Positions 4,460-60,445 are shown, counted from the first letter of the whole stretch. The stretch: DNA of 63,216 nt, filler included, from Circinaria calcarea (GCA_051942165.1; 10 parts of 10 records of this genome joined end to end with filler, not necessarily neighbours in it), one strand, 5' to 3'. Program-made: numbers and translations. The notes: generated from the sequence alone by a model not told the origin.

Positions 4460-6243
4460 ATGCCTCGACATAGACCGCCCACATCTGGATATGCCCGTTT
4501 ATCTCAAGCGGAGGAAGAAGATGGAAATAGATATCTGGACGACTCCGACTCCGACGATGTCCATCAACCCCCCCAAACCATCTCAGTCTCCGCACCACAA
4601 TATGCCCCCATTCAGCCCCAACCTCACCGCCCTATGCCCGGCCCCTCAGAGGGCTACTCCGGACACCGACGGCGCCCCAGTGCTGGCCGGCGACGTATGC
4701 GAAGCAATTCCTCTGGTGTTGATATAAAGGCTATAAACGCAAGACTAGAAAGGTGGGCCGAGGAAATAGCCGCGAAATTCAAGATCAACAAGGTTAAAGG
4801 GAAAACGGAGCACGAAGAGCAGCTGGAGATTCATCATTCGGTTTTCCGACCTCCCGAGGGCCTCCGGCCTGCTACTGCGGAAACCTTGTCTTCCGATGTG
4901 ACAGACGGTCATGGGGAGCGGATGACAAAGATCGAGTTCGACGATGTGGTTGAAAGTGTTAAAGTAGCAATCGAGCTTGGGGTACATCCAAAAATGATCT
5001 CGCAGGGGAGTTCTGGCAGCTATTTCGCTCGGAATGCAGAGGGGAAAGTGGTCGGAGTCTTTAAACCAAAGGATGAAGAGCCGTATGCCTCGAGGAATCC
5101 CAAGTGGACGAAATGGATACACCGGAACCTTTTCCCGTGTTTCTTCGGTCGAGCGTGTTTGATACCCAACCTTTCATATGTTTCCGAGGCAGCGGCATAT
5201 GTTTTAGACACTCGATTACGGACTAACCTGGTTCCCTACACGGACATTGTCTACTTGTCTTCAAAATCCTTCTTTTACGATTTTTGGCAGAGATCGAATT
5301 ACTATCGGAAACGGAAGCCTTTACCACCGAAAGTGGGAAGTTTTCAAGTGTTTTTGCAGGGGTTTAAGGATGCCAACGTCTTCCTACGCGACCATCCATG
5401 GCCGGATCAATTGAATCCAGGTTTTCGTCCGCAAGATGCCCCAAAAACGAGGCTCAGACCATGGGCCGAGACTTGTAGGCCTAGCGGTATTAACTCTGAA
5501 GATGAGGACGAAAGGCAAGACGAGATCCGGTCTTCCGTATCAGAAAATGAAACACAAGGAAGGAGGTTCGTTTGGACAAGCGCCCTACAGCAGTCGTTTC
5601 GAGAGGAACTAGAAAAACTTGTCGTGCTAGATTATATCATGAGGAATACAGATCGAGGTTTGGATAACTGGATGGTTAAAGTCGACTGGCACAACCAAGA
5701 GGTCTCTATCGCCTCCGAACCTCCAAAGTTGAACGGTACCCCGAGTGAACCTGCTACACGGCTAAGGTCAAAGGCTAACGGCGGCACTGCCCCTTCCGAC
5801 TCCAGTCCGTACCGGCGCCAAGAGACAATGTTGCCAAATAGTAGATCTGGGACTCCAACAAATTCCCAGACCTCAGGACGGCCGCCTTCCATTTCTATCG
5901 GTGCAATCGATAACAGTCTGTCATGGCCCTGGAAGCATCCGGATGCTGTGAGTAACGACGATCCCTTGAGAGATAGTACCGGTGACTAACGGAAAAGCAG
6001 TGGCGTAGCTTTCCTTTCGGCTGGCTATTTCTACCTGTATCCCTCATCGGGCAACCATTCTCTCAAAAGACACGCGATCATTTTCTTCCGTTACTGACTT
6101 CGACATACTGGTGGAGTGAGACTCAAATGGCTCTCCGACGGGTCTTCAGCCAAGACTCCGATTTCAAGGAGAGCATGTTTGCGCGACAAATTGCTGTCAT
6201 GAAAGGTCAAGCATGGAATGTGGTGGAAACGTTGAAAACTCCA
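4460..6243 (+). CDS. LSB6: Phosphatidylinositol 4-kinase type II, 3' truncated by contig end
   Basis: Motifs ISQGSSGSYF, VFKPKDEEPY, LDYIMRNTDRGLDNWM and AIDNSLSWPWKHPD. Intron 5948-6000, then WRSFPFGWLFLP. Confidence 0.95.
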
Positions 6244-6343
6244 NNNNNNNNNNNNNNNNNNNNNNNNNNNNNNNNNNNNNNNNNNNNTTAATTAATTAAN
6301 NNNNNNNNNNNNNNNNNNNNNNNNNNNNNNNNNNNNNNNNNNN
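6244..6343. other. Artificial contig linker
   Basis: N44-TTAATTAATTAA-N44 (six-frame stop spacer). Confidence 0.99.
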
Positions 6344-8948: not shown

Positions 8949-11900
8949 ATGCCGCGTCTCTCACCTCCCTACACTTGGCTCTGTCTGGCCCTTCTGGTGG
9001 TCCTCCTCTCTTCTCCCGTCGCTGCCTTTGGTGCGGGTAACATTGGTAAGGCTACAGTCCACAGTCCACATCTAAGGCCAAGACACTCATGATATCGTAG
9101 CATCGTTGGCCGCCATCGAAGGTCAGAACTGGCGCCATGGCGATATTGAAGATACCCTGCTCAATATTCTCATGTCCCGCGCGGCTGGCGGTAAAAAGTT
9201 CAGTAAATTGGATGTCAAACGTGTTTACTTTGGCAACTGGCTACGAGACTACAGTCAGGCTGTCGACGTTGGAACCGTCAAATATGTCAGCGCAGAAGCT
9301 ATTCGGTAAATCCCACCTTGTCAGACGCCAAAGGTTTCAGAAGACTAACAGTTCCTAGATTGATACTATGGGTCTTGGGCTTCATGTCTTTTGGCTATGG
9401 GACCAAGGAGTTCGAGGTTACCACCGAGAGATTGGGTTGTTACCGGCCCGAAGAACATATTGACAATCCAAAAGACTATGCTGGTATGCCGTTGACCTGG
9501 GAGAATATCGCTATCCTGCTGAATTGACTCGCGTACTGCAGATAACATTGATGCCCGTCAATATGACAGGAGGCTTCGCGGTCCCGTCGATGAACGTCGA
9601 GAACTGAGCATTGACCAGCGGACTGGTAGGTCTCCCATCAAATTTATATCCTTTTACTAAAAAACTGTCAGGCTTAAAGAAGTATATTGCATCGGAAGAC
9701 GCAGGTATTACCACGTCCGCCGGCCTAGTCCGTAACCTGTTCGGTCGAAGCATCCAACTAGGCAGGCAATACGCTCGGTCACAAAACAAAGCAGACTTGT
9801 ATGAAGTAAGTTTCCAGCTGCATCTATAGTCACAGTGAATCTCCGGTTAATCAAACCCTTCAGGCGCTTCGATTGCTTGGAACAGGATGCCATTGCTTAG
9901 AGGATTACACCGCTCACTCCAACTACGTAGAGCTCGCTTTGATCGAACTGGGCGAACGTGGGGTGTTTCCCCATGTAGGACGTCAAACTCAGTTGAATCT
10001 CCCAGGAGCTCGACATTCGGTCTATCCAATCATTACGGGAACCTTCGGTGGAGTGGACTTTCTTCACAGGTAACTAAACGTAATCTTACTTAAATGATAT
10101 GGTACTAATAATATTATAACCTAGCGTGATGGGTGAGTTTTCGGACAAAGCAACCCAATCCGAACTCCAGGAGCTCGAGGGAACGGTCGAAGCTTCACAG
10201 AGTGGTGGAAACGTCAGCATGCTGCAGGACCTACTCAATCAAGTCCCAGATGGACTTTTTGGAGGCAAAGATGAAGCCGGTAAAGCAGACGAATTGCAGC
10301 AAAATGCCCAGGCTGCACAAATGCAAAACACCCACATCACCCCTCGAGAACCCGAGGAATGGACTAGGCAGCTACAGGAGGTATCTAATCAGATACGACC
10401 GATTCTCGAATGGCACGAGTATGTCGTCGAAGACCTGCTAAAAGTTTGCGGAAGCTAACTATATCTAGCGAGATCATGCAGTCTATCACGGAGACCATTG
10501 AAAAGATTCCGATCCTGCCAGAGCTCATTGAACAAGTCCAAAGTACATCAACTATCTCTGAATGCTATTGATACTGTACTAAGTTACCCTCAGATCAAGT
10601 CAATATCTTTGTTTTTAGCCTTCTTGCGCCTTTTATCTTGCCTATCATTAAACAGGTAAAGGCTGAGCTTAACACCGGATCCTCCGAAATCATCCAGAGT
10701 AGCCGCGAGAAGCAATTGATTGTATTCTCCGATGACCGATGCAGCGACCCCACTCACTCAATGTTATCCAAGGATCACTTTTCCAATATCCTGTGAGTAT
10801 ACTGCTTGATCAGTATCCAATAGAGACCCAGACTAACGTGGGCTCTAGCAACGAGCCTGCAGGCAAAACAGCTAGCCAAATCCTGAAATGGGTAGTACCT
10901 CAGCTTATTGCTTGTTGGGATGACGAGAGGATCGATGTCGACCGCACCTTGACCAGGATCGTGAACGGCGTATTCCATCATCCAGCATTACGTGATTATG
11001 GAGATGACGGAGCCGCCGATGGTAGAAGACTGATGTTTGGAATTGTTCAAACCTGGTGGTCAGAAAAAGATGAGCAGGAAAAATATACACTACGTGACCA
11101 GCTCAGCCGTGATGGTGTCGAACAAGGACGTAACCACAAGGAGGGCGTTCAAGATCATGGTCACGGTAATTGCAAGGTGGGTTTCCTCTTTATTCTTGCT
11201 GGCTGTATACATTAGCTTATGGAGTCCTAGCCGCTTGGGATGCCAAATGCAAGGACGGCAGGAAGTTCAGGAGCCGTAGGCGGTCCTGCTGCAGGTGCGA
11301 TTCTAGGACAGATTACAGACGCCCTGAGTGGGCAGTCTCAGTATGACGCAGGCGCCACGCGTCCAAGTGCTGGTCAGCCGTCGGCAAGCTTTAGCAAGCT
11401 CGCCGGAGAGGCTGTTGGTGGTGGAGCTTTAGGTGGCATTGTTGGAGGTCTTGCCGGCGGTATTGGTGGGGACCTCCTTAGCGGCGTCCTTGGTGGGTCC
11501 GATGTTAAGAAAGAAAGCTTCCAGAAGCAGCAATATGGACATGATGGCTCGTATACTCAGAAATACACACAAACTGGATATCAAGAAGGCCAGCAGCGAT
11601 ATGGACAAGCCGAATATAGTCAGACAAACTACCCTGGAGGAGGTCACCGGGAGGAATTCCAACGTTTCGAACAGGAAGGACGCGGTCAATCTGGTTATGG
11701 TGAACAAGTCATCCGAGATACCACACCAGCGTACGGAGGTGGCTATGAGCAAACTTCCGAGATTCGTCGTGAACACCCTGGAGAGGCTTGGGAATCAGAA
11801 GTTCGTCATGAAGGACGTACCTCAGGTGGAGAGTTCTACAAGAAAGAAAAGCATCACGAGGGATACGGTGGATACAAGAAAAAGGATTCCGATGACGATA

Positions 11901-23047: not shown

Positions 23048-25260
23048 AGCACTACAAGTCCACTGTAATGGTGTTTAATCACGTTGGTTTATGTATTTAC
23101 TACATTTGATGGAGGAGATTCTGATATTACCCAAGGATGATTATCTTCCATGTCACGTGCTTGACGCGCTTTGATCAACGCGCTTTTCCAGCCACCAGTC
23201 AAGAACACAACATTTGGATTTCCCTCAGCATCATCCCACATCCACAACAAACTCATTGACTACTCTCATCTCAAACGTTCAATAGCATCGACGCTTCAAG
23301 ACGATTGCCGGACCTGCAATTACGCTCACCTCACCATGAATCGCATCTACACCTCGCTCATGACCTTGAACTACCCAAGTCTCGCTTCCAGCACAGTCTC
23401 TTCTCCACCAACTCTCTCGCTCGTTATTGAGCAACACAAAGAAAGCAGCACACCTTCCCTACAGTTCCCCGACTCTCATCTTCCAGCCTTGCGCAAGGAA
23501 TGTCTAAACGCCCCTCGTACACACCTGCTTACCTTATATGGGCACTGTTTCTCGGACCTCGCAGCATGGCTTCGTATAGTTACAGTATTCCTTATCTGGA
23601 ACGCTGCAGTCGCAAGATTGTAAAGGGTAATACGAGAAGGATGAGTTTCGGAACTTAACCCTAAATATTCGTCGGTCCCTTCTCCTTTGGGAAAGGAAAG
23701 TCTTGCGGTTATAGTTGTCAACCCTCTGACTACCTTCTTGTTATCCTCTTTCTGAGCTCTTCGCATGATCAGCTTGGATCTTGGAGATATGGAAGCCAAA
23801 GGAGAGCATGACGTCCAGAGTCCTTCGGACACTGAAATGGCTTTACTATGCGCCGAAATTGGTCAGATCTTCACATGGAGACGCGCCACGGTATCTCCTG
23901 CTGGACACCTACTCTGATTATAGCGGATGCTTCGCTTGATTTGTGGCGTGATTGATGAACAAGGAAGGCATCAGGTGGCATCGGTCGGGCGGCTTCTCGT
24001 AAGCTTGCCTTTTGGATCTTCGAGGACTTGTCTTGAACCCCACTTGGTCACTCATGCTTTGTATATATACATTTTCGATCCTGACAAAACCAGAAACTTC
24101 CATAATCGAGGATCTGGAGACTTTGCTATCGGTTTCCTTGTTACACGCTACGATTCTCCAGTGGATCTCTCCAACCTTGGCGACGTTCTCGTTTTATGAA
24201 AGAGCTACGAGCACGTCAAGTACAACATACTTTGCATACAAAAGGGCTGCAGTGCAGCATGTATATCATCTTGGCTCTCGGTCAATTGTGCAAAGTGGAT
24301 CCACTTGCCGGAACCGTATATATCCCAAGCTTTCAGATGCTCTCTGAGCCAAAGTGGCAGATAAATGCGTAGCAAGGTCCTCGTGCTTACAAATGGATAT
24401 GCATCTGCATTGTGGCCGGCCCTCCAGATTGTTACTACTTCAGTGCAGTACTGGTAGGGCCAATGGCATGACGTCTCGCTCCGGGTAGCTCTGGATCTTA
24501 CAAGAAACTAGCTAAGATGATGGAGATCCACCTGTCGTTGCGTGTGACGAGGGGATTGAAGCAGATGTTATGTTTTCAGATTGTAGTACGAGCATGGATT
24601 GGGTTAAGTAAGGTACAAACGTACACACTCAGCAGAGCAGAGATAGACGGTTTTGGCGGTGGAGATGTCCAGTACCGATCTCCTATTAGCTGAAGGCTCT
24701 AGCAGCCTTTGTTATCCCTGATCTCCACTCCTTTTCAATCACGTCGTCTATTTGACGAGGCCCAATCACGAAGCCTACATCCCGGCATCAGCCAATGGTG
24801 TAGTTGTCTCTTCAAAGACATGTCCCAATCAGCCGCATTAATCACCTCCTCGTGTGGTCAGCACACGAGTCGAAGGTGAGCGCTGACATTTAAGTCTTCT
24901 TAGCCCTCACCGGCCAGGTCGACGCCTATCCTTCCTACGGGGAGATGGGAGCGGTTTTTGGTGATGTCCTTTGTCCGCTTAGCCACTGCCCTTCTGTTGT
25001 TCCGAAAGGACTGCGGAAGAGGAAACAAAGACTAGTCTCTGAAGGTACTGCACATCAAAATGAGAGATATTCCTGAGCTTGCAGAAGCAACGGAGTCTTG
25101 GATCCGAGATTTGGGAGTAATGTTTGGTCTTTTAGGCTCAATGATACGTGGTGTTTGTGATTGGTGAGGGAGCCAGTTAGTGGAATGAGGGCATCGACAA
25201 ACTTAAAGTCTCGAGGGCCAAAGTCGATGAGAGAAGTAGCAAGAATTGGTTTTGTGGGAT

Positions 25261-25360
25261 NNNNNNNNNNNNNNNNNNNNNNNNNNNNNNNNNNNNNNNN
25301 NNNNTTAATTAATTAANNNNNNNNNNNNNNNNNNNNNNNNNNNNNNNNNNNNNNNNNNNN
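25261..25360. other. Artificial contig linker
   Basis: N44-TTAATTAATTAA-N44. Confidence 0.99.
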
Positions 25361-26716: not shown

Positions 26717-28779
26717 TCACTCGACCGTTATGTCCCTTCGTGAAGCCTGCTGATTTGGCAGTAGCTTTGGCTTCGAGCTCGGGATCTTGCGGATCCTTGG
26801 AATAGGCTTAGGCTTCCCTGGAGACTTAGGACTTGACTTCGCGGGCCCCGACGAAGTTTCCCGAGCCGCTTCGAGTGCCTGATTGGTCGTACGCCAACGA
26901 GACATGAAGTCGTCGTGATTTACTACATCACGTTGGTTAATATGCTAGACCAGCATGTCTTCCGTTGGCTGGTGCTCTTACTGTATCCACCACACATTCG
27001 CCTGTTCCCGGTGAAGGCTGTTCTACCATGTAAAAACCTCCAATTATCAAAAACTGGTAAAGTCAACAATCTACAATCCCCCAAACAACCTTGGTTAAAC
27101 TTACTGACCGGTTTCCCTGGCCTCAATGGTTCCCAGTACTCTAAGCTCGGCCGCCGTAAGATCTCGACCCATTTCCTTGCAGCATCATACCACGCGTCCA
27201 GATGTTGTACCGCAATATTTAATGCTGCCCTGTCTTCGTTATTCCATCTTACCTGTAGTACTTCTCCCGTCTTAGGGTGATGGTTCAGCACAGGATACTC
27301 GAATGCAGGATGAATGCGGATCCCTTCATTTCCACTAGCATGGGCCGGTACCGTGGCATTACTAAGTAGATGATGTGCTGCTGGGTCTTCATCTTTGAGA
27401 ATCTGTGCAGCCTTGAACCCATCTACGAGTAGTGACTCGCCGCCACTGCCGTCATTATGTGAGAGAAGATGAAACATTTGTAGGCCGGCAGGTTCGGTGA
27501 AGTAAGTCGTATCAGTGTGAGCTTGCAAGGCAAGATTAGTGTAGGCTGTATCTTTGGAGGAGAGATCGGATGTAAAATCGTAGAACCCGCCTGAAGCCAG
27601 ATATCAGTAAGGACTATGCGTGGTACGCAGTGGTCGACATACCATAGTGCGTTTGACGTATAAAAGCTATGCGTTCTAGTAGTAATTTGGTAGCTGATGG
27701 AGTGGGCGGGCAGTGATCTACGTAAGAGAAGCCGTACTGCGCCTATGAAAGCGTGAGTGGGACGTAGTATGAAGAGGTGGCAAGGCTGACAATCGAGTTT
27801 GTCCACTTTGCTACTCCTTTCTCGGAGCTCATCACTTCTTCGTAATCTATTGTTGGGGGACCATTACGCCCAACATCGTCAATCCAATATGTCCTACATC
27901 CGATAAGCACGTAACAACATGGAAGGAGGTTATCTCACCTTCGTATAAACTGATTCTCTCCTATAACACGGGCTCGAAACCACTCCCAGCTGTAGAAACT
28001 CTGATGACCGTCATTTTGCCCTTTGTCGTCAGTTCTCAGGTTATTCAAGGGAGAAATATGATCATACATGTAACTGCAAGACCATCTGTACTATCATGAG
28101 CCTCCTTAACTCTTATGTTGCGTGGAATCTTTATATACGAAAAATGTTAGTTAAAAATACAGTTACATTCTTGAAACTATGAAAGGTAGGTCATTGTTTG
28201 AAAGCCAAACATCAAAATATTCACAGACAACTGGAGTACTCAATTTATCAAGGCCAAAAGACATGACGAAGTCTAGTTACCGAGACTTACTGCAAACGTG
28301 TCTAGCAGCCGCTGTTTTGTCTTTTCATGAACGCATTCTTTGCACTGGCAGTGGTCTCTGTCAAGTATAACTTTAAGCAATCAGGTTCGCTCAATAGGGC
28401 CTTGGGGCGAAATGTCTTACCTCAAGAATATATTGCTACTGCTCCACATAATCAGCCGAACAGAGTCTTCAAAGAACATATTGCGCACAAGCTAAAGTCT
28501 GGATAATCCGGCCATCTGAGATGAATGTCTTGCCAGGTATCACCAGTCAATCTAGTCTATCCTACCATCAGCCGAGTTTCTGATATACGGACGAATCCAG
28601 CTTGGCCTAACAGGCTGAAAATGTCCCTTTATTGGTTGCCAGTCCGTCTTGCTATTGAAAGCAAATTGTTTGACAGGCCTCTCAGTCGCCTGATCATTTG
28701 TCCAGATGCGACGAGCATGGGACCATGTACGACTTGGAAGACCTTTTACGACCCGGGGCCTAAAGGTAAGAAGAGACAT
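26717..28779 (-). CDS. Trimethyllysine dioxygenase (carnitine biosynthesis; GBBH/TauD-like), multi-exon
   Basis: N-terminal LRDHCQCKECVHEKTKQRLLDTF zinc domain; IRQTHYGGFYDFTSD; HTDTTYFTEPAGLQMFHLL; VRWNNEDR; FDNWRFLHGRTAFTGNRRMCGGYINHDDF. The exact 5' exon boundaries are less certain. Confidence 0.92.
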
Positions 28780-29114
28780 TGAATGGTAGGATCGTTTTCC
28801 CATCCATCATCTGTAGAAAACAAATGTATTTTGGGGTATACAGCTCTATAGACGTTCATGCGGGTCTGAGACATGCATCGAGGGTGTAAAAATTGACCGC
28901 CGAACCCAGTTCATCGGATCACCGTAGCACCCCCTAATCGTGGTGGGAAACGGCCCTGAGACTTGGTAGTTACCACTCATTTGGAGGCGGCACGAAAGCA
29001 ATTTCTACGGTTACTAACTTAACTGGTAAGTGCTCCGAACTTTTCTCGAGAAGTGTCATTGTCTAAATTTGTGATTATTTATTTAATTAAGGAAGAACAT
29101 CATCCTCTACACAG

Positions 29115-29248
29115 GGCACCTTGGCCTAATGGTAAGGCGTTGCTTTCCGGTTGCGTGAATGGCAAAGATTGTGGGGTAGGTACATTCCTCCGCCAACATC
29201 TCGAACAATTATCCTAATCCTCTTCCAGTTCGAGTCCCATAGGTGTCG
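29115..29248 (+). tRNA. tRNA-Arg(CCG) with a canonical anticodon intron (29151-29159) and a 53-nt spliceosomal-type insertion in the T arm (29176-29228)
   Basis: Acceptor stem GGCACCT/AGGTGTC, D arm GCCT-AATGGTA-AGGC, anticodon arm TTGCT-TTCCGG^T-GGCAA, variable loop AGATT, T arm GTGGG^TTCGAGT-CCCAT, discriminator G. Confidence 0.9.
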
Positions 29249-29259
29249 GAATCAGTTCA

Positions 29260-29273
29260 TTTTTGTCCTTTTT
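29260..29273 (+). terminator. Pol III oligo-T terminator of the tRNA gene
   Basis: TTTTT at 29260-29264 and a second T-run at 29269-29273. Confidence 0.75.
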
Positions 29274-29690
29274 GGACGACATTTATATCTTCATGGGAGA
29301 GTTTTTTGTGATGTAAATGATCTTATCCGCAGGGGAAGATGGAGGGAAATTTTTATAATCCCGACCTCATAGAAACAATGCTCCAAAAGAATCATGAAAA
29401 TGACTGCCATAGATGCGGAGGCTGGACCTCCTACGGTCAGAGTTCACAAAGCCATTTCACGTTATCGCACTGAAGTTTTCTGAGTGCCCGCACGGAATCC
29501 ATCCAGGATCAGGATGTATATTGTATTTCAGCCGGCGGGGGTCTAACCCCCTTTATAGGAAGTGGTACTCTACGTAAAACGGTCATCCAATTGCACGCTA
29601 TCTTTGGAGAAGCTATGCTGATAATCTTTAAAGTAACCGAGCAGGCGGTTGCTCAAGAACATATAGCCCCTAATCTAGCTCGACACCTTC

Positions 29691-30847
29691 TAGCTTGCTC
29701 TTACTCCCCACACATTTCATCAATGCCCGTCTGTTACCGAGCATCACTTTCCCTCCCTCAACCCTTGTCAGGTACCTGACCTCTTCCCAGCTATCTTTTA
29801 CTTTCCCAGTCCTCCAGGCCTCTGTCACAAGCTTATCCCCCGGATTCACCGGCGCAGCGAACCTAGCTTAGAATTCCTTGATTTTGGCAGGGTCGCTTCC
29901 ATCGAGTGCTTGCAACAGGCCATGACAGGCAGAACTCCACGAGAATAAGCCGTGCATAATGGCATCGCCAAAACCCATCTGTTGACCCGGCTTAGGGGTC
30001 GCGTGTAAGGGGTTTTAGTCGCAATTCAGCCTTGTCTCTGTAAACCAGAGACTAAATCTTGGGAGGAAAATCTACCGTATCTATAGAGGAGGGCCGACGC
30101 GGTGGTTGTCCGTAGTGTATGTACAGCGTTCGGCTTCTTCCCTTCCGGTGGAGGGAAATTCACAATGTTCGGCCCTTCAATCCATCAATCAGCTCGTACT
30201 CAGACCACTCCTCATCTCCTGAACCTCACTCACCCTTTAGCCCACCCCAATTACCTTGCCCATCGAAGAATACACTTCCTACAGTCCTGGTAAGAATGTC
30301 GCCGCCCTTTTCCACCAGCACCGTCTCCGTCTCCACCATACTCCCTGCCTCTTCCTTGTCATACACCCCTATAATCTTGGTTCGATCTTCAAATATCTTC
30401 CCTTGGCTCGTTGGTGGTAAGGGCTTGAGGAAAGTGAGCAGACGGCTGACCATCAACGACTCGGTCGGGAGTCGAATCTGGGACGTTGGGAATGTTCGTC
30501 AAGACGTCGTGCGGGCGTAGAAGTCAACAAACTCTTGGTCGGCCTGCTTGGAGAGGCTTAAAATTCTCAGGATAATTCGTAGAATGGTGTGGTTAATGGC
30601 GAACTTTTGCGGGATCCTATCGCACCGAGGATGATGGGATATGTTGGAAAGACCCGGAATTTGGGGTGGAGTTCCTAAGAGCGTCAGTGAGCTTTGGCAA
30701 ACAGAAATTGGAGGGGAAACTCCTACATAAAGGAAGTGAAGCTCGTCCGCTGTGCAGCCAGTGCTATTTGCGAACAGTAAGGACATCCCGCTTCAACCAC
30801 GAAACCTTTTGGGAAGGATACTCAAAACCTGCGCCTAGTCCACTCAT
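29691..30847 (-). pseudogene. Disabled peroxisomal MaoC-type enoyl-CoA hydratase/dehydratase
   Basis: MSGLGAGFEYPSQKVSWLKRDV, a frameshift to LLFANSTGCTADELHFLY, and another frameshift at VDGQ. The catalytic motif reads YRLNCD*NPLHA (TAA 30015-30017), with a second stop EF*ARF (29868-29870). One intron donor reads AT instead of GT. A remnant ...GSKSKL PTS1 is present. Confidence 0.88.
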
Positions 30848-31591: not shown

Positions 31592-31691
31592 NNNNNNNNN
31601 NNNNNNNNNNNNNNNNNNNNNNNNNNNNNNNNNNNTTAATTAATTAANNNNNNNNNNNNNNNNNNNNNNNNNNNNNNNNNNNNNNNNNNNN
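31592..31691. other. Artificial contig linker
   Basis: N44-TTAATTAATTAA-N44. Confidence 0.99.
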
Positions 31692-59299: not shown

Positions 59300-60445
59300 C
59301 TAATACTGAGCTGCTTCGAGTGGTCGAAGCAAGTGCTTCAGCACTGCCCCAGCCTCCAGCTCGTCCACTGCTTGCTTGCTATAAATCTTCCGGCTGTCAT
59401 AGCTGTAATCACTCAGCTCCTTTACTGTCCGGAAAATCCGAACGTATTTGCCACCACTACGGCCCCATTCAATGAGATCGATGATGTTGACATGACGGCC
59501 GCGGACGGACTGTTTCAAGGGTTAGTGCTCACGCATTTGAAGAACATGGGGATGTAGACCTACTGATCGACATAGCTCACATGTTGTAGGGAGGGGTGTG
59601 ATGCGCACCGCCCGGCAAAGTGAATGCCACGCATTCAGGTCATCTTCAACACCGAACCACAGGTTAAACTCCTGTGTTAGCGCGGTTTGATAACGATGCC
59701 ACAATTCTTTGCATTCGGGGCCTCCACGGGACCATTTGTGGCGTTTCTGCAGATGGCTTTGAAGGGATTCAAATGAGATGGCGGGTGGTGTGGAGGCGTC
59801 ATAATGGAAGGAGTGGTGGGAGTGGAAGAAGTTGTCCAAAGGGCCGTCAGAGGTCCAGCTTTGCAACAGACGATTAGCGGCTAAATTCGACTTTGCAATC
59901 CTTTTTCCTTTGGTTTTATTCGCTTCAGGTGTCCCTGATATTGTAGAATTGACATGCAGCGGGACTAGGACAGTTGATATCTCAGGTATCAGCTTTCTAG
60001 CATGCGCTTTCCCGGCAAGATGGTCAACTCTTGAAATAGCTTGCATTTTCCGGTTGCAGAGTGTGCATGTCCAAGGGACGGCGCCAGGTGGAGCTGACAC
60101 TGTGACAGCGTTCCGTAGCTTGGCTTTTGTCTGCGTAGGCTCAGCTGTTCTTTGGAGAGTCGAGGGAATCGCAGTGGTAGGATGTCGCGAAAATTCTGCA
60201 GAGACTTGCACACAATCCGTGATCCCATATTGCTGATCTTTTATATGGGCAACAGGCAAGATGGATATGGACTCTTTGCTAAAAGAAGAATGCAAAAGAG
60301 TAAGTTCTTTGATTCGGGATGCCAAAGCGCTAGCGTTGAATTGTGCAAGACGAGCTTTATGACTATTACTGCCTATATGCGCCGGTCCGTCTTTTACCGC
60401 CATAAGAAGGGAACAGATTGTACAAGTCCACGTGGTATATGCCAT
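59300..60445 (-). CDS. Protein with two U1/matrin-type C2H2 zinc fingers and a C-terminal uncharacterised helical domain (intron 59563-59510)
   Basis: WTCTICS...HIGSNSH; WTCTLCN...HLAGKAH; then FNLWFG.EDDLNAWHSLCRAVRITPLPTTCELCRS|SVRGRHVNIIDLIEW...VLKHLLR. Confidence 0.82.

Follow-up and report, generated by a model that had tools for sequence, protein, structure and literature searches.

A fungal tRNA-Arg(CCG) gene with an endonuclease-type intron and an apparent spliceosomal intron in its T arm

A tRNA-Arg(CCG) gene whose T arm is interrupted by a 53-nt insert bearing the signals of an mRNA intron is present in the 63,216-nt stretch of DNA analysed here (hereafter, the window). With a probability of roughly 0.74, it represents a working nuclear gene of an ascomycete-like fungus that combines an endonuclease-type intron between tRNA positions 37 and 38 (37/38) with a U2-type GT-AG spliceosomal intron between positions 53 and 54 (53/54). 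The anatomy of the gene, its splice signals, the conservation of these signals in related genes and the covariation of the stems are direct observations. As similar inserts are kept in related environmental genes, the spliceosome is probably needed for this tRNA, and the maturation of tRNA-Arg(CCG) would then require the mRNA splicing machinery.

Organization of the tRNA-Arg(CCG) gene

Both the reading of the sequence and the Rfam alignment place a complete tRNA-Arg(CCG) gene with two interruptions on the plus strand at 29115-29248. As delimited by the alignment and by our parse, exon 1 (29115-29150) covers tRNA positions 1-37, comprising the 5' strand of the acceptor stem (GGCACCT), the D arm, the 5' strand of the anticodon stem and the loop as far as G37. 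The anticodon CCG, which specifies arginine at the codon CGG, lies at 29147-29149 according to the Rfam alignment and to ARAGORN after removal of both inserts. It is followed at 29151-29159 by a 9-nt intron, TTGCGTGAA, which the parse puts at 37/38; this intron is not GT-AG and is of the ordinary tRNA type. Exon 2 (29160-29175), identified by the same alignment and parse, carries positions 38-53 with the 3' strand of the anticodon stem (GGCAA), the variable loop AGATT and the T-stem strand GTGGG. The second interruption is the 53-nt insert at 29176-29228, located at 53/54 and assigned to the spliceosomal GT-AG type by its sequence, by comparison with the gene family and by an estimate of chance occurrence. 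Exon 3 (29229-29248), which was recognised from the sequence, the Rfam alignment and the parse, supplies the T loop TTCGAGT, the T-stem strand CCCAT, the acceptor strand AGGTGTC and the discriminator G. Without the two inserts, all 21 stem pairs are of the standard type and the anticodon CCG sits in a 7-nt loop.

The preliminary description of this locus had read the insert as 53 nt at 29176-29228 with the layout GTAGGT, CTAAT and CAG, and this reading is confirmed by the sequence. The predicted 5' splice site GTAGGT occupies 29176-29181, and related genes aligned with it show no variation at G1, T2, G5 and T6. The motif GTRNGT is the extended fungal 5' splice site, complementary to U1. The branch-site motif CTAAT lies at 29214-29218; its A, at 29217, precedes the 3' splice site by 11 nt, and its TAA is invariant; the predicted 3' splice site CAG is found at 29226-29228, with an invariant AG. 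The border of the insert is ambiguous by one base, since a G stands on each side, and the GT-AG register leads to 53/54. The exons flanking the 53-nt intron are very short for a spliceosomal substrate, the two introns being separated by 16 nt and the second being followed by 20 nt and the trailer. A TAGGT pentamer, noticed by eye, is common to the start of the intron and the 3' end of the tRNA, out of register; an origin by tandem duplication was considered for it.

Several features of the locus concern transcription. Two T5 runs, the usual terminator of RNA polymerase III (Pol III), are present downstream at 29260-29264 and 29269-29273 (+), the first beginning 12 nt past the discriminator, and the insert itself has no T run longer than 2. 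An A/T-rich, TATA-like stretch read from the sequence at 29075-29091 (+), 24-40 nt upstream of tRNA position 1, is a possible upstream Pol III promoter element. Within exon 1, TGGCCTAATGG at 29122-29132 is what we take to be an A-box-like element. The last AG of the intron joins the start of exon 3 to give AGTTCGAGTCC (29227-29237), which agrees at 10 of 11 positions with what we take to be the B-box consensus. The same holds for the 53/54 introns of the family, where the final AG plus TTCGAGTCC gives 10 of the 11 positions, and on the same assumed consensus all 11 are kept with the introns at 52/53 and 51/52.

Survey of related genes in metagenomes

Homologues were sought in a metagenome collection with a 27-nt query that runs from the D arm to G37 and holds no T-arm information. 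This search pattern fixes the D arm and the anticodon stem's 5' strand, and these parts are uninformative on conservation. The survey yielded 63 homologous loci (designated by L numbers), 61 of which were fully parsed, 20 having an insert outside the anticodon loop and 41 having none. L029, excluded from the 61, ends six bases into an insert that starts GTGAGT. At L061 there is only the 5' half of a tRNA, from the D arm to the anticodon, with unrelated sequence after it, and this locus may represent either a fragment of a tRNA gene or a gene with more extensive interruptions; the intact intronless gene L060 lies on the same contig about 2.5 kb off.

When the window gene is included, there are 19 distinct non-anticodon inserts, distributed over seven positions. 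Inserts at 53/54 occur in the window gene and in L008, L009 (= L023), L026, L027, L036 (= L055), L039, L041, L046 and L054, and those at 52/53 in L018 (= L045), L028, L030 and L031. The remaining sites are 7/8 (L004), 8/9 (L016), 51/52 (L011), 58/59 (L021) and 66/67 (the second insert of L027).

Some of these genes are unusual in their own right. L027, read on the minus strand of its locus, has three interruptions, namely a 37/38 intron of 28 nt, a 59-nt insert at 53/54 (L027:298-356; GTTGGT, ACTAAC and AAG) and a 50-nt insert at 66/67 in the 3' strand of the acceptor stem (L027:235-284; GTCCGT, GCTAAC and TAG). In L021 a 55-nt insert (L021:316-370, minus strand; GTATGT, CACTAAT and CAG) lies within the T loop at 58/59. 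In L004 (343-398, +) and L016 (429-484, -), a 56-nt GTGAGT intron separates the acceptor strand from the A box, and the two insertion sites differ by a single base. The tRNAs of these two loci are otherwise identical, and the same mature sequence is found intronless in L007, L013, L015, L025, L050 and L062. The position of these two introns suggests either intron sliding or two gains, and puts the transcription start site in question. BLAST of the 300-nt flanks of all parsed loci returned 45 pairs in the same intron state and no pair with similar flanks that differed in it; by this comparison, no presence/absence variant and no RNA-derived copy was found among the parsed loci. L016, with its 8/9 intron, and the intronless L007 and L015 have a short upstream motif in common, seen by eye and below the BLAST threshold.

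Splice signals and their conservation

The distinct inserts are highly uniform in their signals. All 19 begin with GT and end with AG, in a parse that gave preference to GT-AG wherever a border could be shifted by 1-2 nt, the extended signals being independent of that choice. G is found at +5 in 19/19 and T at +6 in 17/19, and every insert has a YTRAY motif 10-15 nt before its end (19/19; for L039, inspection by eye gave CTAAC at 11 nt). A YAG acceptor is present in 16 inserts, and the other 3 have AAG. Most inserts (17/19) are 50-60 nt long, and the remaining two measure 100 and 107 nt. The 37/38 introns of the same genes served as a control, and none of the 21 distinct ones (7-36 nt) is GT...AG. 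The probability that a random insert permits a GT-AG register is about 0.008. Furthermore, when random 53-mers of window composition were placed at the insert site, GTRNGT and YAG coincided with a YTRAY motif located 8-20 nt from the end in 11 of 3,000,000.

Conservation is confined to the same signals. When eight 53/54 genes were aligned with MAFFT, the exons hardly varied, and within the intron no column was invariant except those of GT, +5G, +6T, the branch TAA and AG. Flank similarity identifies two orthologous pairs of loci. L008 and L041, with flanks 77-80% identical, agree at 72/72 exon positions and at 35/54 intron positions (65%); L026 and L036, with flanks 76-84% identical, agree at 72/72 exon positions and at 44/60 in the intron (73%, with indels). 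By these comparisons, the intron behaves like one in which only the splice signals are under selection. The expectation of the preliminary description that relatives would have inserts at the same position, with conserved splice signals and a divergent interior, is thus borne out: related genes have inserts at the same or nearby positions, in which GT, +5G/+6T, the branch TAA and AG are kept and the interiors diverge.

The length of the insert was also said to match that of the pre-mRNA introns in the window, and this likeness stands, as 53 nt fits the range of 50-58 nt seen among intron candidates that are known from ORF joining alone. Such candidates are located at 5948-6000 (53 nt), 10419-10468 (50 nt), 10793-10848 (56 nt), 9806-9863 (58 nt) and, on the minus strand, 59510-59563 (54 nt, likewise GTAGGT). 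The short ORF-joining candidates carry GTRNGT and CTRAY. A further intron candidate lies at 26923-26981. A loose intron pattern was no commoner in the window than in Markov shuffles (14 vs 15.4), so pattern counting alone provides no evidence.

Recognition by tRNA search programs

It had been suggested that standard scanners could miss this gene. ARAGORN called no tRNA anywhere in the native window, and the Rfam tRNA model (RF00005) barely passed, scoring 32.4 bits on 29115-29248 against a cut-off of 29. The Rfam match is nevertheless end to end (model 1-71), and its alignment accommodates an insertion in the anticodon loop and a second, long insertion in the T loop. When both inserts were cut by script, ARAGORN reported tRNA-Arg(CCG). 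When the 53-nt insert was cut and the 9-nt intron kept, it reported tRNA-Trp(cca) with the short intron misplaced after position 35 (29145-29160), and this miscall is a pitfall in the annotation of such genes. In a check of the kind that the preliminary description had put forward, ARAGORN gives the Arg(CCG) call only once both inserts are removed. The resulting product is identical (72/72) to the natural intronless genes L019 and L059, of which L019 scores 61.7 bits in Rfam as against 32.4 for the window gene.

The same behaviour extends to the family. Among 21 native interrupted genes, ARAGORN made no call for 17, called 2 as Arg with a wrong "anticodon intron" of 55-64 nt and 2 as tRNA-Pro, so that none of the 21 was correct. 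With the non-anticodon inserts cut, it called a tRNA in 21/21, as Arg(ccg) in 18, undetermined in 2 and Trp(cca) for the window gene; with all inserts cut, the call was Arg(ccg) in 21/21. Rfam scored 13 of the 17 interrupted loci submitted at or above its cut-off, two of them as partial matches only, and one at 27.6 bits, below the cut-off. The other three of these 17, L021, L027 and L046, gave no tRNA match at E <= 1.

Selection on the tRNA and features of transcription

The interrupted genes represent 10 distinct mature sequences, in which 210 of 210 stem cells hold standard pairs. Compensatory changes are seen at six pairs, five of them in the acceptor stem and one in the T stem (50-64, T-A to C-G). 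The compensated pairs span the insert, which indicates selection for stems that pair after removal of the insert. A T5 or longer run is present within 40 nt downstream in 18/18 distinct interrupted genes, as compared to 31/33 uninterrupted ones. Inside the inserts themselves T5 is found in 0/19 against a shuffle mean of 2.1, which is a weak trend (P = 0.09). Additionally, most homologues, interrupted or not, have TATA-like stretches at a similar upstream distance, as judged by eye and unscored.

Surroundings of the gene

The tRNA gene lies within an interval of about 1.8 kb that is devoid of any ORF with a Pfam match. To one side, Pfam identifies a TauD-family dioxygenase gene at 26923-27603 on the minus strand; to the other there is a MaoC-like ORF at 29670-29867 (-), which scores 21.8 bits, below the Pfam cut-off of 27, and beyond it an NADAR-domain gene from 31205 onward. 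A match to the Ascomycota telomerase RNA (RF02462) is located at 24949-25037 (+), with 39.9 bits against a cut-off of 30 and covering only positions 1283-1381 of the 1858-position model; there is probably a telomerase RNA gene about 4 kb upstream of the tRNA, to judge from this match. Together with the short ORF-joining intron candidates that bear GTRNGT and CTRAY, the match suggests that the DNA comes from a filamentous ascomycete. About 85-100 nt upstream of the tRNA gene, TACTAAC at 29012-29018 (+) is followed 8 nt later by GTAAGT at 29027-29032, and these motifs could be splice signals of an unannotated transcript, or chance. The window also contains pairs of 44-N blocks about every 6.3 kb, with 792 N in all. 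The first are at 6244-6287 and 6300-6343, and those nearest to the tRNA at 25261-25360 and 31592-31691. None touches the tRNA gene, but neighbouring ORFs are cut, for example the NADAR gene.

Alternative explanations

The spliceosome might act on a Pol II transcript, either a host or a read-through product, from which RNase P and RNase Z would then cut out the tRNA. Recruitment of the spliceosome is normally coupled to Pol II (PMC8527467), the TACTAAC and GTAAGT motifs upstream could belong to a spliced transcript on the same strand, and the inserts of L004 and L016 part the acceptor strand from the A box, which is awkward for a Pol III start chosen by measuring from the A box. This account is nonetheless unlikely, given that the interrupted genes are followed by T5 or longer runs just as the uninterrupted ones are, that TATA-like stretches stand, by eye, at the usual distance upstream of exon 1, and that no ORF with a Pfam match extends across the tRNA locus; avoidance of T5 by the inserts weighs weakly in the same direction. 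Very unlikely, in turn, is removal of the insert without any spliceosome, for example by the tRNA splicing endonuclease acting on a bulge-helix-bulge (BHB)-like fold as in red algae. The conserved positions are the U1, U2 and AG signals and nothing else, whereas an intron read by its structure needs no GT, no +5G, no YTRAY at a fixed distance and no AG. A 4-bp central helix in the canonical register is found in 0/19 inserts, three of its four pairs in 5/19 and one of four in the window insert, by a test that counts the strict register only and in which true 37/38 introns reached four of four in just 4/21. Non-canonical introns known from eukaryotic tRNA genes are of this BHB-like type. The red algae do provide precedents, as the tRNA-Ile(UAU) of Cyanidioschyzon merolae has an hBHBh' intron at 53/54 (PMC9602550) and Chondrus crispus has RT-PCR-validated introns at 20/21 and 58/59 (PlantRNA 2.0 preprint). 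An endonuclease-type intron was itself considered for the 53-nt insert and rejected, its position being 53/54 instead of 37/38 and a strict-register BHB being absent.

The window copy might also be dead or dying, its insert never removed and the tRNA provided by a different Arg-CCG gene; other contigs do contain intronless genes of identical mature sequence (L019, L059). Yet the exons of the window gene match a natural intronless gene at 72/72 positions, with terminator and upstream element intact, and 18 other distinct inserts keep full splice signals around stems that are perfect and covarying. Moreover, the intron has been kept in both orthologous pairs despite drift of its interior. Decay would not preserve intact exons, terminators and splice signals, which makes a dead gene hard to square with the data, and we regard it as highly improbable.

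Proposed maturation pathway

A working gene with two introns of different types accounts best for these observations. The preliminary description had interpreted the insert as a spliceosomal intron, and both the scans with and without the insert and the conservation in related genes lend support to that interpretation at the level of sequence. We infer from the same material the splicing event, the order of the steps and the polymerase. Transcription would proceed through both inserts, most likely by Pol III in view of the TATA-like stretch, the near-intact B box after the intron, the T5 terminators and the absence of any long intronic T run. The spliceosome would then recognise GUAGGU, the CUAAU branch site and CAG, and excise 53 nt. 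The T stem (GTGGG/CCCAT) and the T loop could form only after this removal, and the folded body would subsequently be read by RNase P, RNase Z and the endonuclease with the ligase, completing the tRNA. The 9-nt intron at 37/38 is the one that the tRNA splicing endonuclease and ligase would be expected to remove. Beyond the window, we lean towards the view that spliceosomal introns have been gained and inherited many times in the tRNA genes of filamentous fungi, with seven sites in the tRNA-Arg(CCG) family alone, and that a share of these tRNAs consequently needs both the spliceosome and the endonuclease.

Significance

A spliceosome-dependent tRNA would have several implications. Textbooks separate three classes of introns (see the introduction of PMC12530127), namely spliceosomal introns of Pol II transcripts, tRNA introns cut by the endonuclease, and the HAC1/XBP1 introns cut by Ire1. 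If our reading is true, such a tRNA would blur the line between the spliceosomal and tRNA-endonuclease classes and would join U6 and rRNA as the precedent for a third polymerase class. It would also be a clean system in which to study how a short, uncapped and highly structured transcript is found by the spliceosome, and at which point this step falls among those of RNase P, RNase Z and the endonuclease. The supply of tRNAs, including the decoder of CGG, would be tied to splicing capacity. Furthermore, the number of tRNA genes in fungi would be underestimated by standard scanners, or functional copies would be annotated as pseudogenes. Catalogues of fungal tRNA genes and models of codon usage may be incomplete, since ARAGORN missed or miscalled 21/21 of the interrupted genes and Rfam missed 3/17, with one more below the cut-off. 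The seven insertion sites and the orthologous pairs would additionally provide material on intron gain where every exon base is constrained.

Comparison with known systems

The precedents named in the preliminary description, the fungal U6 intron (PMC5855946) and the ascomycete rDNA introns (PMC5855946, PMC8527467), are both to be found in print. Schizosaccharomyces pombe and other fungi have an mRNA-type intron in the U6 snRNA (Tani and Ohshima 1989, 1991, cited in PMC5855946). The present intron resembles it as a short GT-AG intron with a branch site in a small structured Pol III RNA gene, whose removal is needed for folding, and in having positions that differ between fungal lineages. Unlike a tRNA, U6 lies within the spliceosome's active site, which opens a route of origin by reverse splicing; unlike U6, the tRNA-Arg(CCG) host also carries an endonuclease-type intron. 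Spliceosomal introns are likewise found in the rDNA of ascomycetes, mainly lichen-forming ones (Bhattacharya et al. 2000, cited in PMC8527467 and PMC5855946), and yeast removes one such lichen rDNA intron from Pol I transcripts (PMC8527467). They are similar to the tRNA introns in being ectopic spliceosomal introns in non-Pol II genes of ascomycetes, but their host is a Pol I rRNA instead of a 72-nt tRNA, and the accounts just cited describe no second splicing system on the same molecule. The list of non-coding hosts given in PMC5855946 comprises the U6, U2, U5 and U1 snRNAs and rRNA, and that list includes no tRNA. A full-text literature search retrieved no paper that reports a spliceosomal intron within a tRNA gene, and the literature searched likewise yielded no account of splicing in any structured Pol III transcript besides U6. 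Taken separately, intron and tRNA are ordinary, and it is their combination that appears to be undescribed.

The red algae provide the closest likeness in position. In C. merolae, tRNA-Ile(UAU) has introns at 12/13, 37/38 and 53/54, and the extra ones are removed before the anticodon intron (PMC9602550). As in the genes studied here, the available accounts of red algae describe nuclear tRNA genes with an extra T-arm intron at the same sites (53/54, 58/59) besides 37/38, and genes that scanners miss or call pseudogenes; the L021 insert at 58/59 occupies the same site as the non-canonical introns reported for Chondrus crispus. The means of recognition differ, however. The C. merolae introns are described as hBHBh' structures for the endonuclease, whereas the strict BHB register is found here in none of the 19 inserts and GT, branch site and AG in all 19. 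Finally, the ordinary tRNA introns at 37/38 are represented in these genes by the 9-nt intron of the window gene and 20 other distinct introns of the family, none of which is GT-AG. In contrast to them, the 53-nt insert lies at 53/54, is GT-AG and has the length of an mRNA intron.
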